A stretch of 33,510 nucleotides of DNA, from the IMG/VR virus record IMGVR_UViG_2703718823_000008, one strand, 5' to 3'. The number at the start of each line of letters is the position of its first letter. Position 1 is the first letter of the stretch. Source of the stretch: a virus. Lineage: Duplodnaviria; Heunggongvirae; Uroviricota; Caudoviricetes. Under the pieces are notes generated by a model. That model worked only from the letters and a program-made list of their open reading frames with translations, searched no databases and was not told the origin of the DNA. Shown here one piece after another: positions 7,431 through 15,278 of the stretch. The translations under genes were made by a program, and so were the position numbers.

Positions 7431-7506
7431 GGCCCTTTAGCTCAGTGGTGAGAGCGAGCGACTCATAATCGCCAGGTCGCTGGTTCAAATCCAGCAAGGG
7501 CCACCA
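7431..7506 (+). tRNA. tRNA with CAT anticodon, Ile2 (lysidine) type, resembling the host ileX/ileY tRNA and the ileZ of Stx phages
   Basis: Manual cloverleaf fold: acceptor GGCCCTT/AAGGGCC, D-loop with GG, anticodon loop CTCATAA, T-loop TTCAAAT, 3' CCA encoded. Confidence 0.85.
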
Positions 7507-7515
7507 TATCACATA

Positions 7516-7592
7516 CCGCCATTAGCTCATCGGGATAGAGCGCCAGCCTTCGGAGCTGGCTGCGCGGGGTTCGAGTCCTCGATGGCGGTCCA
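7516..7592 (+). tRNA. tRNA-Arg with TCG anticodon
   Basis: Manual cloverleaf fold: acceptor CCGCCAT/ATGGCGG, anticodon stem CCAGC/GCTGG with loop CTTCGGA (G at position 37), T-loop TTCGAGT, 3' CCA encoded. Confidence 0.75.
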
Positions 7593-7870: not shown

Positions 7871-8299
7871 ATGTATTGCCGTGCTGTACCGGTTCTTGTT
7901 TTGATATTAGCCAGTCTGACAACTGGCTGCACAAAAGATGTATCGACAAATAATTATGATGCTTCGCTGCATCACTCAGATAAATTAATAAAGTCGCAAA
8001 ATTTGAGCTTATCGGAACGTACCCCTGATGCCAGTGAAGAAATCCGGCAGTATGCCATTCAGGTCAGGGAAGCCATAGAAGAACAGTTAAAGGATGCGGG
8101 TAAGTATTCAGGAAAAGAGTGTTCACTGAGAATGTATATGGCCCCGAATGGTCTTCTGCTACAGGTTAAAAGAGAAAGCGGTGATCCCGATTTATGTCGT
8201 GAAGCGATGAATGCAGTAAAGAATGCTGATATACCATCACCACCGTCTTCAGGAGTATATAAAGCATTTAGAAATGGCGTGCTGGATTTTAAACTCTGA
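7871..8299 (+). CDS. Lipoprotein carrying a stand-alone TolA C-terminal (domain III)-like domain
   Basis: 142-aa ORF; signal peptide with lipobox-like LTTGC (Thr at +2); C-terminal 80 aa aligns by eye to E. coli TolA domain III (GKxC-LR---APnG-LL, GDP-LC, IP-PPS, VY--F-N--LDFK); GGAG SD; low-GC gene. Confidence 0.8.
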   Translation: MYCRAVPVLVLILASLTTGCTKDVSTNNYDASLHHSDKLIKSQNLSLSERTPDASEEIRQYAIQVREAIEEQLKDAGKYSGKECSLRMYMAPNGLLLQVKRESGDPDLCREAMNAVKNADIPSPPSSGVYKAFRNGVLDFKL

Positions 8300-8321: not shown

Positions 8322-8612
8322 GTCCAGATGATTTTGGGGTGCTGGAAAGATATTGTGCTGTGAAGTGTTAAATTCCTCACAATTCAGTAAGTTGACAGTT
8401 GCCTGTCAGACTGGGCATTTGTTAAAAAAATTTCGCATGGTGAATCCCCCTGTGCGGAGGGGCGACTGGTGAACGGTATGATCTCTTTGATGATCGTAAG
8501 CGAGAATACGCGGGTTTAGTGTCACCGGGCTGAACTCACCGGGAGGCACCCGGCACCATGCTCATGGTGATACAGAAATGCGGCTTCAGCCCCTCTCTGG
8601 AGGGGCTTTCTT
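8322..8612 (+). repeat. Structured noncoding repeat unit A (about 270-290 bp) ending in an intrinsic terminator; candidate sRNA or 3'-UTR element
   Basis: Shares conserved blocks with units B and C (GTTAAAT-CCTCACA-TTCAG; TGAATCCCCCTG-GCGGAGGGGC; ACCGGGAGGCACCCGGCAC-ATG); terminator GCCCCTC-TCTG-GAGGGGC plus T-tail at 8589-8612. Confidence 0.6.
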
Positions 8613-8618
8613 ATGGAC

Positions 8619-9004: not shown

Positions 9005-9281
9005 ATTGCAGATGATTGTTAGCTGGATATCAGTTACCTCATGGAAATGTTAAATGACTCACAATTCGGTTGATGGACTATTGTCTGATTGATGGAAGTC
9101 TTGTAAAAACGAGCCAGCATAGTGAATCCCCCTGTGCGGAGGGGCGTCTGACATGGTCTCCATAGCGATGGTCACAATACGCAGATTCAGTAGTCAGGCT
9201 GAATCTACCGGGAGGCACCCGGCACTATGCTGCTTATGGTGTATACACAGCGATCGGCCCCTCTCCTGAGGGGCTTTTTTT
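9005..9281 (+). repeat. Structured noncoding repeat unit B ending in an intrinsic terminator
   Basis: Same conserved blocks as unit A; terminator GCCCCTC-TCCT-GAGGGGC plus T7 at 9257-9281. Confidence 0.6.
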
Positions 9282-9289
9282 GTGCGGGA

Positions 9290-9543
9290 AAAGGCTGTGT
9301 TGTTAAATGTTAAATCCCTCACAGTTCAGATGGTTGATGCTTGCCTGTCTGACGGGGAGTTGTTAAAAAAGTTCTGCATGGTGAATCCCCCTGAGCGGAG
9401 GGGCATATCAGCGCAGGTGTTTCTACTCTATCCTTTCTGTGCGGGTTCAGGTGCTGATACTGAACTCACCGGGAGGCACCCGGCACCATGTAGTATACAG
9501 AGATTAGGCATACATCCAGGCTCCTCATTGCAGGAGCCTTTTT
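9290..9543 (+). repeat. Structured noncoding repeat unit C ending in an intrinsic terminator
   Basis: Same conserved blocks as units A and B; terminator AGGCTCCT-CATTGC-AGGAGCCT plus T4 at 9518-9543 (different stem sequence, same structure). Confidence 0.6.
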
Positions 9544-9549
9544 ACATGC

Positions 9550-13517: not shown

Positions 13518-14012
13518 ATGAACCGCGTTCTGTGTGTGGTCATTATTGCCTTGCTGGTGGCCTGTGGTGCGCTTAGTCTGGGGCTGAATCATTACCGTGA
13601 TAACGCCATCACCTACAAAGCGCAGCGCGATAAAAAAGCCAGAGAGCTGGAGCTGGCAAACGCAACCATTACTGACATGCAGCAGCGCCAGCGTGATGTT
13701 GCTGCGCTTGATGCCAGATACTCAAGGGAATTAGCCGATGCGAGAGCTGAAAATGAAACTCTGCGTGCTGATGTTGCCGCTGGTCGTAAGCGCCTGCGGC
13801 TCAACGCCACCTGCCCCGGTACCGTGCGTGAAGCCACCGGCACCTCCGGCGTGGATAATGCAACCGGCCCCCGACTGGCAGACACCGCTGAACGGGATTA
13901 TTTCAACCTCAGAGAACGGTTGATGACAATGCAGAAGCAGCTGGAAGGGGCGCAGGAATATATACGCACTCAGTGCACTAAGCTGGCTTTTTATTATCCG
14001 GAGGATACATGA
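13518..14012 (+). CDS. Rz: Spanin, inner-membrane subunit Rz
   Basis: 164-aa ORF strongly resembling lambda Rz ([16 protein letters not shown]...[15 protein letters not shown]...[20 protein letters not shown]). Confidence 0.9.
13738..13923 (+). CDS. Rz1: Spanin, outer-membrane lipoprotein subunit Rz1 (embedded in the +1 frame of Rz)
   Basis: 61-aa ORF with lipobox LVVSAC and proline-rich [27 protein letters not shown] matching lambda Rz1. Confidence 0.8.
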
Positions 14013-14233
14013 AGAAATTACGGGTAACCGTAGAACCTTTTCAGGGAACAATTCCGTTCCGTATTTTGCAGCGTGGTCGTGTTCTTGTTGAAGGTTCGTT
14101 CAGTGGTAAATGTACGCAATTACACTCCCGGACCTTTCAGGTGAATGCCACGAATGAAGAGCTAACCGTTGAGTGTACGATGAATGCCGCTAAATGCCGC
14201 ATGGTATCCGCTGCATTACAGCCAGTGTGTTGA
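14009..14233 (+). CDS. Hypothetical small protein (74 aa, four Cys)
   Basis: Strong GGAGG SD 5 nt upstream; start overlaps the Rz stop. Confidence 0.45.
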
Positions 14234-14572
14234 GCGACCTTATTATCCATGGCGCGGTATTGTCGCCGTATTCCCGTATTAACAGAGACCGCAGCCCGAC
14301 AGGGAGACTCCTCTGCGCGAGTGTGCGGGGATAATCAAAAACGATACACACCGGGGTTTACCGCGTTAACGGAGCGCGGCGTTGTCCCCTCATGGTCGCT
14401 GGTCCGGTGCGATGGTGGAAGAAACCGGACGATGTGTTACCTCGCAAGCTCTGTTATGTCATGTGTCTGATTTGTGATTTAAGTCGGATAATTGTCGTTG
14501 CCATTAAGCAGAGGATTGATGACCGACAGGGTGGCATTGTTAGAATAAGACTTATTCTTATCTGTGCCGGGA

Positions 14573-14905
14573 ATGAAAATGAAAAGAAATCTTCCGTTAA
14601 TTATTTTGTTGTCTTCTCTGGTTATGGGCTGTACGCAACATAAAACAGATATGCCCCGACAGTTGGTTAAGGCATTACCACAATATCCGGCCTATGCAGC
14701 GGCAAATTATATAAAGGGACGGGTTGATGTGAAGTTTGATATTGGTGCTGATGGTACTGTCACCCGAATTGAGTTTATCCGTTCAGAGCCGCACCATCTG
14801 TTTGATGAGCAGGTTGTAAAAGCGATGGCAAAATGGCGATTTGAGAAGGACAGGCCGCGTAAAGGCGTGAAGAAAACGTTTATCTTTAGTCCTTCTGCAC
14901 CCTGA
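14573..14905 (+). CDS. Lipoprotein carrying a stand-alone TonB C-terminal domain
   Basis: Signal peptide with lipobox LVMGC (Thr at +2); C-terminal region aligns by eye to E. coli TonB C-terminus (PQYPA-A----I-G-V-VKFD---DG-V...S-P---F......AM--WR-E); promoter-like TTGATG and TAGAAT plus palindrome AGAATAAG-A-CTTATTCT at 14542-14558 upstream. Confidence 0.8.
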   Translation: MKMKRNLPLIILLSSLVMGCTQHKTDMPRQLVKALPQYPAYAAANYIKGRVDVKFDIGADGTVTRIEFIRSEPHHLFDEQVVKAMAKWRFEKDRPRKGVKKTFIFSPSAP

Positions 14906-15036
14906 TTATTTCATCAGAAATTAATTATCACTCTGTTGTTATTCTGTACATCCCGGCAGGGTAAGTCTTGTTCCGTCGGATATGAAGATGAAATATTGTT
15001 GGAGGACAGTGGGTACCTGCTCCTGTAACCGAACGT

Positions 15037-15237
15037 TCATTTCTCGTTATTTGTCATGCTGGCCGGGCGCAGATGCGTTGCATCTGTTGCCAGCCTTCTC
15101 CTGCAGGCTTCAATAACCCACGCTGAAAAGTTACCGGACCCTTTATGCTCAAGGGCGATGTTGATCTGTTCAATCATGTGATTGGGGAAACGGATATTGC
15201 GGGTTGTGGTTCTGCGGGTCCGGTTTTTCGATGACAT
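15037..15237 (-). CDS. Small ribbon-helix-helix-like DNA-binding protein (YlcI/DUF3950-like)
   Basis: Internal ATG with AAGGA SD chosen as start; IRFPNHMIEQINIALEHKGSGNFSAWVIEACRRRL resembles RHH/Arc-type proteins; divergent from the HNH gene. Confidence 0.55.
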   Translation of the reverse strand: MSSKNRTRRTTTRNIRFPNHMIEQINIALEHKGSGNFSAWVIEACRRRLATDATHLRPASMTNNEK

Positions 15238-15278
15238 ATTTATTTCCTTTACTGATTGCCATATGACGGGGATTTTAC

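Follow-up and report, generated by a model that had tools for sequence, protein, structure and literature searches.

The window analysed here is a stretch of 33,510 nucleotides (IMG/VR record IMGVR_UViG_2703718823_000008) and is a lambdoid, Stx-phage-like Escherichia coli prophage; the 801 bases tested are 100% identical to several Shiga toxin-producing E. coli and other human isolates. We focus on a gene at 14579-14905 encoding a small predicted lipoprotein, which carries a signal peptide and a stand-alone TonB C-terminal domain and is referred to below as the TonB_C lipoprotein. A preliminary description, made from the letters of the window and a list of its open reading frames (ORFs), had suggested that this protein is a decoy for TonB-dependent import. 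The data show that the gene is real and under purifying selection, that its product truly belongs to the TonB_C family and that the protein is not a TonB.

The lipoprotein and its TonB C-terminal domain

The gene and the parts of its product are as follows.

14579..14905, + strand: coding sequence of the 108-aa TonB_C lipoprotein, from the ORF and from profile and homology matches; RefSeq WP_000828070.1, 'TonB family protein'
14579..14632, + strand: putative signal peptide with lipobox LVMG-C, from a pattern match; Cys18 is at 14630-14632
14654..14890, + strand: TonB C-terminal domain (residues 26-104, which correspond to E. coli TonB 153-231), with the YP motif and the terminal β3
14568..14572, + strand: Shine-Dalgarno-like GGGAA, 6-7 nt 5' of the ATG, read from the sequence

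Profile searches identify the domain clearly. The protein matches Pfam PF03544 (TonB_C) with an E-value of 5.5e-15 and 56 bits against a cut-off of 24.6 bits, and TIGR01352 with 56.5 bits against a cut-off of 27.1. In a phmmer search of the PDB, residues 26-104 align without gaps to residues 153-231 of E. coli TonB (E ~3e-16). The stand-alone TonB C-terminal domain of the preliminary description is thus present, and the comparison of structures gives the same answer. An AlphaFold model, for which the input was an alignment of 20 sequences, has a predicted local distance difference test score of 96-98 across residues 31-100. When this model was compared with the PDB using Foldseek, all 11 significant matches (E < 0.001) were C-terminal domains of TonB or FusB. 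They include the TonB C-terminal domain 1u07 (E 6e-8), TonB bound to BtuB (2gsk_B; root-mean-square deviation (rmsd) 1.0 Å over 79 aligned columns, TM-score 0.92) and TonB bound to FhuA (2grx_C; rmsd 1.2 Å). Domain III of TolA appeared in the fold search only at E 0.1-1. By both profile and fold, an alpha/beta arrangement with a three-stranded sheet, the protein is therefore a genuine member of the TonB_C family.

Compared with the TonB C-terminal domain (E. coli residues ~150-239; PDB 1U07, 1XX3, 2GSK and 2GRX), the domain of the window superposes with an rmsd of 1.0-1.4 Å and aligns gaplessly at 37-42% identity, keeping the YP motif, the aromatic core and the β3 edge strand. The residues shared in the phmmer alignment are the YP motif, F180, G186, F202, W213, E216 and F230 (TonB numbering). 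Q160 is replaced by Leu, R158 by Lys, R166 by Tyr and Y215 by Phe, and the last 8 residues of TonB are absent. Two substitutions at the first of these positions, Q160L and Q160K, are the classical tonB suppressors of TonB-box mutations. In the model β3 is the last structured element, with the protein stopping 5 residues beyond it, and so it forms an exposed edge strand. The model therefore suggests that the domain keeps the edge by which TonB pairs with TonB boxes, and that it may bind them in the same way.

The remainder of the protein is unlike TonB. Between Cys18 and the domain there is a tether of 8 residues only, which is too short for a membrane anchor or for a proline-rich spacer, as the preliminary description had recognized. 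The PRK10819 full-length TonB equivalog models match over positions ~152-240 only, scoring 49-73 bits where the cut-offs are 265-448. Lacking the anchor and the spacer, and far below the equivalog cut-offs, the protein is not a TonB. In place of the N-terminal anchor it has a predicted outer-membrane lipid anchor, and it cannot transduce energy. The N-terminus, MKRNLPLIILLSSLVMG followed by CTQ, matches the PROSITE-type lipobox pattern ([LVI][ASTVI][GAS]C, preceded by a positively charged n-region and a hydrophobic h-region), which bears out the LVMGC lipobox with Thr at +2 that had been noticed earlier; the +3 residue is Gln. There is no Asp at +2, and by the +2 rule Lol sorting to the outer membrane is predicted. 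From this we infer that the TonB_C lipoprotein is lipidated and located in the outer membrane.

The start of the gene is most simply read as the ATG at 14579, which is kept in phage 21; GTG 14564 and ATG 14573 are other possible starts, and the stop codon ends at 14905. The counterpart of the GGGAA motif in phage 21 is AGGAA, which has the same spacing and is annotated there as a ribosome-binding site.

Selection, relatives and genomic setting

Phage 21 carries an allele whose product is 71% identical to that of the window. The ratio of non-synonymous to synonymous substitution rates (dN/dS) between the two alleles is 0.115, at a proportion of synonymous differences (pS) of 0.66, at which synonymous sites are near saturation; for the domain alone the ratio is 0.10. 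The flanks (~640 bp) are also homologous to phage 21, at 70%. This is a real gene under purifying selection. The differences between the alleles amount to 5 of 13 residues in the segment equivalent to TonB Q160 and 7 of 19 in the C-terminal residues around β3, compared with 8 of 51 in the core. The variable segments correspond to the parts that face the transporter in TonB, although the numbers are small.

One or other allele is found in 1616 of 5426 complete E. coli genomes (~30%), in up to 4 copies per genome; the window allele is in ~414 of them and the phage-21-type allele in ~1200. Carriers include phage 21, Stx1a-converting phages, JLK-2012, ev017, Perceval and Lys8385Vzw, and a Klebsiella phage has a form that is 40% identical. 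An exhaustive, profile-free protein search returned 4933 TonB_C proteins. The closest relatives outside E. coli are short (107-133 aa) and single-domain, and nearly all have a lipobox. Among the short relatives as a whole the lipobox is present in 30 of 52, most of the remainder being truncated; where it is present the +2 residue is S, T, A or V and never Asp. In a rough neighbour-joining tree the short TonB_C lipoproteins cluster apart from the genuine enterobacterial TonB C-terminal domains. They have the clade-specific motifs SEPxHLFD and KPxxGM, and members are 33-50% identical across genera. A separate clade with its own motifs is not a recent scrap of a host tonB, and these comparisons place the gene in an old family whose members are stand-alone TonB_C lipoproteins. 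Separately, many proteins of ~350-1300 aa (P0034, P0036, P0043 and others) contain 3-5 tandem TonB_C-like stretches.

Database names such as 'partial TonB' and 'TonB fragment', and the frameshifted or truncated copies that occur in some genomes, would fit a captured 3' end of tonB that survives as a non-functional remnant. Such a remnant would not be expected to show the dN/dS given above, to have acquired and conserved a signal peptide with a lipobox, to form a clade of its own across genera or to be transcribed in a lysogen, as the homologue in Perceval is (see below). We regard it as extremely improbable, and the data on selection and conservation effectively refute a pseudogene or fragment.

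The family occurs in prophages of Escherichia, Klebsiella and Serratia and at chromosomal, non-prophage sites in Raoultella, Klebsiella, Serratia and Pantoea. In prophages the slot is constant: the gene lies 3' of the lysis cassette and 5' of HNH or terminase and is read in the direction of the late genes. This arrangement is seen in E. coli, in phage 21, in one Serratia prophage and in most of 40 Klebsiella-type viral contigs, and it is kept even where the type of lysis cassette differs. The neighbours in the window are as follows.

13518..14012, + strand: i-spanin Rz (Pfam Phage_lysis, 9.5e-50)
13738..13923, + strand: o-spanin Rz1, embedded in Rz, from the ORF list
15037..15237, - strand: YlcI/YnfO-family gene (DUF3950), convergent, followed by HNH, terS and terL

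The placement between lysis and packaging genes in the preliminary description was therefore correct, with Rz/Rz1 upstream and ylcI/ynfO, HNH, terS and terL downstream. The order in the 5' part of the window is Q antiterminator, two tRNAs (7431-7503 and 7516-7589), a TolA-like gene and the nanS-p esterase gene. The middle part has holin, lysozyme, Rz with its embedded Rz1, a 74-aa ORF and the TonB_C lipoprotein gene, and the 3' part has the convergent ylcI/ynfO, HNH, terS, terL, and head and tail genes with an OmpC-like porin gene among the latter. The G+C content over the TonB_C lipoprotein gene is 0.40-0.44, against 0.50-0.59 in the flanking lysis and terminase genes, and a low value of this kind is typical of inserted cargo.

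The slot bears on whether the protein takes part in lysis. A match to PHROG 1267 (E=1.9e-42), which is labelled 'Rz-like spanin', the position directly 3' of Rz/Rz1 in the late orientation in four diverged prophage lineages, and an operon-like arrangement at Serratia locus L094, where the next ORF overlaps the end of the gene, would all suit an accessory lysis or late protein that is expressed as part of the late operon and acts on the outer membrane at lysis. However, a complete Rz/Rz1 pair is already present, the fold is that of a TonB C-terminal domain and not of a spanin, the homologue in E. coli LF82 is transcribed in the lysogenic state and there are no lysis genes near the chromosomal homologues. 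The slot 3' of Rz is a general insertion site for morons in lambda, and in phage 21 it also holds bor. A role in lysis is therefore very unlikely. As a spanin the protein was rejected outright, on the separate Rz/Rz1 pair, the TonB_C fold and the chromosomal members that lack lysis genes, and the PHROG 1267 label looks like an annotation error spread by neighbourhood.

The chromosomal members raise another possibility. In Raoultella and Klebsiella they lie 3' of lacZ, lacI and a glycine-zipper lipoprotein gene, and in two Raoultella species a yagU-like gene is directly 3' of the TonB_C lipoprotein gene. The Serratia grimesii member is near dsbB, nhaB and fadR, and the Pantoea member is near dinI. 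Since these members are stable, the role of the family need not be phage exclusion. The protein could instead be a lipoprotein that serves the envelope in a housekeeping or fitness function and has nothing to do with blocking import, for example as a tether between outer membrane and peptidoglycan or as an envelope stabilizer, and in prophages it could be a conversion factor like Bor/Iss that gives serum or stress resistance. The stable non-prophage members in Raoultella, Klebsiella, S. grimesii and Pantoea speak for this, as do the flanks of the Raoultella and Klebsiella gene (lacI and the glycine-zipper lipoprotein on one side, yagU on the other), the adjacency to bor in phage 21 and the separate clade with motifs distinct from those of TonB. 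Binding to peptidoglycan has been reported for the TonB C-terminal domain. On the other hand, the TonB_C domains whose partners we know of (TonB, HasB and FusB) act through TonB boxes, no peptidoglycan-binding motif was identified in the protein and nothing ties the gene to serum resistance. We consider an envelope role of this kind unlikely.

The comparison with Bor/Iss of lambdoid phages is close in setting only. These too are outer-membrane lipoprotein morons in the slot 3' of Rz/Rz1, but they have no kinship with the TonB_C lipoprotein in sequence or fold, and Bor is antisense to the late operon whereas the TonB_C lipoprotein gene is co-oriented with it.

Some further observations concern the surroundings. 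A DUF1440/YagU-like inner-membrane gene recurs near the TonB_C lipoprotein gene (L003 277-903; L085 7738-8301; L103-L116); it lies ~3.7 kb upstream in many Klebsiella prophages and directly downstream at the chromosomal loci of the two Raoultella species. About 300 bp 5' of the gene (window 14249-14470; L002 2200-2490) are ~70-80% conserved with phage 21 and hold a small ORF that is hypothetical there (CPT_21_72). This stretch may be part of the same mobile module or may be regulatory sequence. A full-length porin gene of the OmpC/Lc type at 29581-30675 (+ strand; Pfam Porin_1, 4e-143) is flanked by the tape-measure/M region and L; the lc porin of phage PA-2 and, in Perceval, the NmpC porin moron are reminiscent of it. 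The interval from the TolA-like gene to nanS-p contains three copies of the small RNA family STnc100 (Rfam RF02076, 121-172 bits), at 8406-8618, 9088-9283 and 9348-9549 (+ strand). Rfam gave no match within 14200-15300.

The upstream region and expression

Two features overlap upstream of the gene.

14519..14546, + strand: promoter-like site with -35 ATGACC, a 16-nt spacer and an extended -10 TGtTAGAAT, from a consensus scan (9/12 plus TG)
14542..14558, no strand: perfect 8-1-8 palindrome, AGAATAAG-a-CTTATTCT, exact, overlapping the -10 and the expected start site

The site at 14519-14546 is sigma-70-like and is a putative promoter. Its extended -10 block, TGTYAGAATAAGAC, is common to the window and phage 21 alleles, and the block ATTGTYAGAATAAGAC is also kept in the upstream region of phage 21, which has otherwise diverged. 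Promoter-like sites are no more frequent in the region than in shuffled controls (3 versus 2.1 +/- 1.6).

The palindrome, from which regulated expression had been suggested, is exact as described, but its right arm lies within a 13-nt segment that is absent from phage 21, the left arm being kept. We have therefore rejected it as a conserved operator; it is allele-specific and its significance is doubtful. A match of 13/19 to the Fur consensus at 14544-14562 overlaps the palindrome and places in the first 9 of the window's 33,492 positions. As a Fur box this is weak, and the phage 21 allele does not have it; we therefore keep it as a weak lead only.

The Fur-like site is relevant to the possibility that the protein is a physiological regulator of TonB-dependent transporters, which benefits the host and does not exclude phages. 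It could park or protect TonB boxes, or it could adjust TonB-dependent signalling or the uptake of iron or vitamin B12; it could also reduce the influx of iron and thereby change the expression of Fur-controlled genes, the last being conceivable for Stx1 phages. The argument from fold serves a regulator as well as it serves a decoy. The position of the Fur-consensus match over the -10, the presence of the gene in Stx1a-converting phages, the sitABCD iron/manganese transporter that Perceval also bears and the chromosomal homologues would all fit. Set against them are the weakness of the 13/19 match, the loss of the site from the phage 21 allele and the finding that no transporter gene is linked to the family at any locus examined. 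Such a regulatory role seems to us distinctly unlikely.

Expression in a lysogen has been reported for the other allele. LF82_160, listed as a 'TonB fragment' of prophage Perceval in the adherent-invasive E. coli strain LF82, is transcribed in the LB-grown lysogen at 8-fold above the local prophage background (PMC9928086, Table 1). The list in question holds prophage genes that are at least 5-fold above background, and LF82_160 stands in it beside the cI repressor, the NmpC porin and sitABCD and is classed as a moron (PMC9928086). The Perceval gene is the same allele that was found at 71% identity, that is, the phage-21-type allele. The idea of lysogenic expression in the preliminary description thus gains independent support. 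Additionally, no intrinsic terminator was found between the stop codon and ylcI. Because the gene points the same way as the late operon, with no terminator found to separate them, late lytic transcription would be expected too, by analogy with Q antitermination in lambdoid phages. Three observations would suit a moron: the dip in G+C content, the promoter-like extended -10 kept between the alleles and the transcription of the Perceval homologue at 8-fold above background.

On the opposite strand there is a near-consensus sigma-70-like site inside the TonB_C ORF at 14733-14706 (TTCACA-16-TATAAT, 11/12). Judged by eye, its -10 is dictated by the NYI codons, and phage 21 has a weaker -35. The match has probably arisen by chance.

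A possible decoy at TonB boxes

We tentatively propose, with somewhat less than even confidence, that the TonB_C lipoprotein is a prophage moron product that competes with TonB at TonB boxes and so damps TonB-dependent uptake and import. The gene would be a moron, an accessory cargo of lambdoid prophages. A lipid anchor in the inner leaflet of the outer membrane would place the domain beside the periplasmic face of the TonB-dependent transporters. With no anchor of the TonB type and no spacer it could not be energized by ExbB/ExbD. Its β3 edge strand would pair with TonB boxes non-productively, in competition with scarce TonB, and TonB-dependent uptake would be damped. Lysogens would then be more tolerant to agents that need energized TonB (T1, phi80, H8, group B colicins and several microcins), at the cost of a partial loss of siderophore and B12 uptake. 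Both the binding to TonB boxes and any exclusion phenotype are suggested by homology. To our knowledge, every TonB_C domain with a known partner (TonB, HasB or FusB) pairs its edge strand with the TonB box of a transporter.

The nearest precedent is experimental. As cited in PMC9841981, TonB-dependent iron import in E. coli is reported to be inhibited when a periplasmic domain of TonB is overproduced (Howard, Herrmann, Stratilo & Braun 2001, J Bacteriol 183:5885), and the same article summarizes work in which a TonB-box pentapeptide lowers colicin killing and phi80 infection. The engineered fragments, like the TonB_C lipoprotein, are anchorless TonB C-terminal domains in the periplasm, and they are the direct precedent for a dominant-negative effect. 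They differ in that they are artificial, soluble, overproduced and derived from E. coli's own TonB, whereas the protein of the window is natural, diverged, predicted to be lipid-anchored and apparently made at modest levels.

A second comparison is with the superinfection-exclusion lipoproteins Llp of T5 and Cor of phi80, N15, HK022 and mEp167. These are also small phage-encoded lipoproteins of the outer-membrane inner leaflet, from which they act on the periplasmic face of FhuA, inactivate it and block phages, colicin M and ferrichrome; their acylation favours complex formation by keeping diffusion within the plane of the membrane (bioRxiv 10.64898/2026.03.26.714494). The TonB_C lipoprotein would likewise be a phage outer-membrane lipoprotein that disables TonB-dependent transporters, here through mimicry of the transducer. 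The two kinds of protein are unrelated in sequence and fold: the Pfam scan of the window protein gives TonB_C and TonB_2 only, and there was no significant match to it in the BFVD library of viral structures. Llp and Cor are specific for FhuA and act allosterically through its plug and loops, whereas a TonB mimic would target the TonB box common to all such transporters and would affect TonB-dependent steps only.

Several points weigh against the competition that we propose. The domain is 37-42% identical to that of enterobacterial TonB, has Leu at Q160 and Tyr at R166 and falls in a separate clade with motifs distinct from TonB, so that its partner could differ from that of TonB. The stable non-prophage homologues fit a housekeeping envelope role as well as they fit defence. 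Transporters far outnumber TonB, and a decoy expressed at a modest level might give partial inhibition only, at a cost in iron uptake. The 8-residue tether may also be too restrictive for the docking geometry of the TonB complexes. The absence of the palindrome from the phage 21 allele weakens part of the preliminary reading. Full-text literature searches found no functional study of the gene, and PADLOC-DB contained no matching family at E <= 1. Additionally, the tail-tip protein J of both the window prophage and phage 21 is lambda-like. The C-terminal 249 residues of the window J are 94-96% identical to those of PhiR12-type phages and ~42-44% identical to J of lambda or phage 21; phi80 and N15 are not among the best J matches listed, and there is no sign of self-exclusion at the phage's own receptor. 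Since the carrier phages have a lambda-like J, exclusion, if there is any, would have other phages and bacteriocins as its targets. It is the diverged clade, the changes at Q160 and R166, the chromosomal members, the abundance of transporters and the short tether that keep our proposal of a decoy tentative.

The novelty of the protein also has to be qualified. The preliminary description knew of no characterized phage exclusion protein of this architecture, and the literature searches agree; labels do exist, however, in the databases ('TonB C-terminal domain protein', 'TonB family protein' and 'TonB fragment'), and the record of phage ev017 has 'Partial tonB-like membrane protein encoded within prophage CP-933N'.

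The same prophage encodes a second protein of comparable design.

7871-8299, + strand: TolA-domain-III-only lipoprotein, 142 aa, with a predicted lipobox LTTGC and Thr at +2, a linker and TolA domain III

Residues 55-141 of this protein align gaplessly to E. coli TolA 334-420 (E ~1e-24; PDB 1s62, E 7e-25), the Pfam TolA_C match is 3.4e-22 and the RefSeq name is tolA. The gene is in the 'stx slot' after Q and the two tRNAs, and phage mEp460_ev081 has a 64% homologue downstream of its Q. Like the TonB_C lipoprotein, it combines a lipobox with only the C-terminal domain of an outer-membrane energy transducer; unlike it, it belongs to another domain family and occupies another slot. It is rarer (126 of 5426 E. 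coli genomes), and the two genes form one contiguous module in only 9 genomes. They are therefore independent cargo, their pairing in the window is anecdotal and we have rejected a systematic association. The TolA-like lipoprotein may play for the Tol system the part proposed for the TonB mimic. It is a more doubtful suggestion that lipid-anchored TonB and TolA C-terminal domains make up a widespread class of natural dominant-negative 'transducer mimics' that gate TonB- and Tol-dependent import. If they did, the resulting tolerance would be broad and would extend to entire classes of phages, colicins and microcins, not only to the users of one receptor, and both prophages and some chromosomes would use them.

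A gene carried by ~30% of complete E. coli genomes has thus been known in databases only as a TonB 'fragment', a TonB 'family protein' or a 'spanin'. The question of its function is easily testable, as K-12 lysogens of phage 21 exist. If competition at TonB boxes is true, the TonB_C lipoprotein would be a generic exclusion or tolerance factor and not a receptor-specific one. Many clinical strains could then differ in their sensitivity to phages, colicins and microcins that depend on TonB and to siderophore-antibiotic conjugates, and their acquisition of iron and B12 could change too. This would matter for phage therapy, for 'Trojan horse' antibiotics and for competition by means of bacteriocins in the gut.

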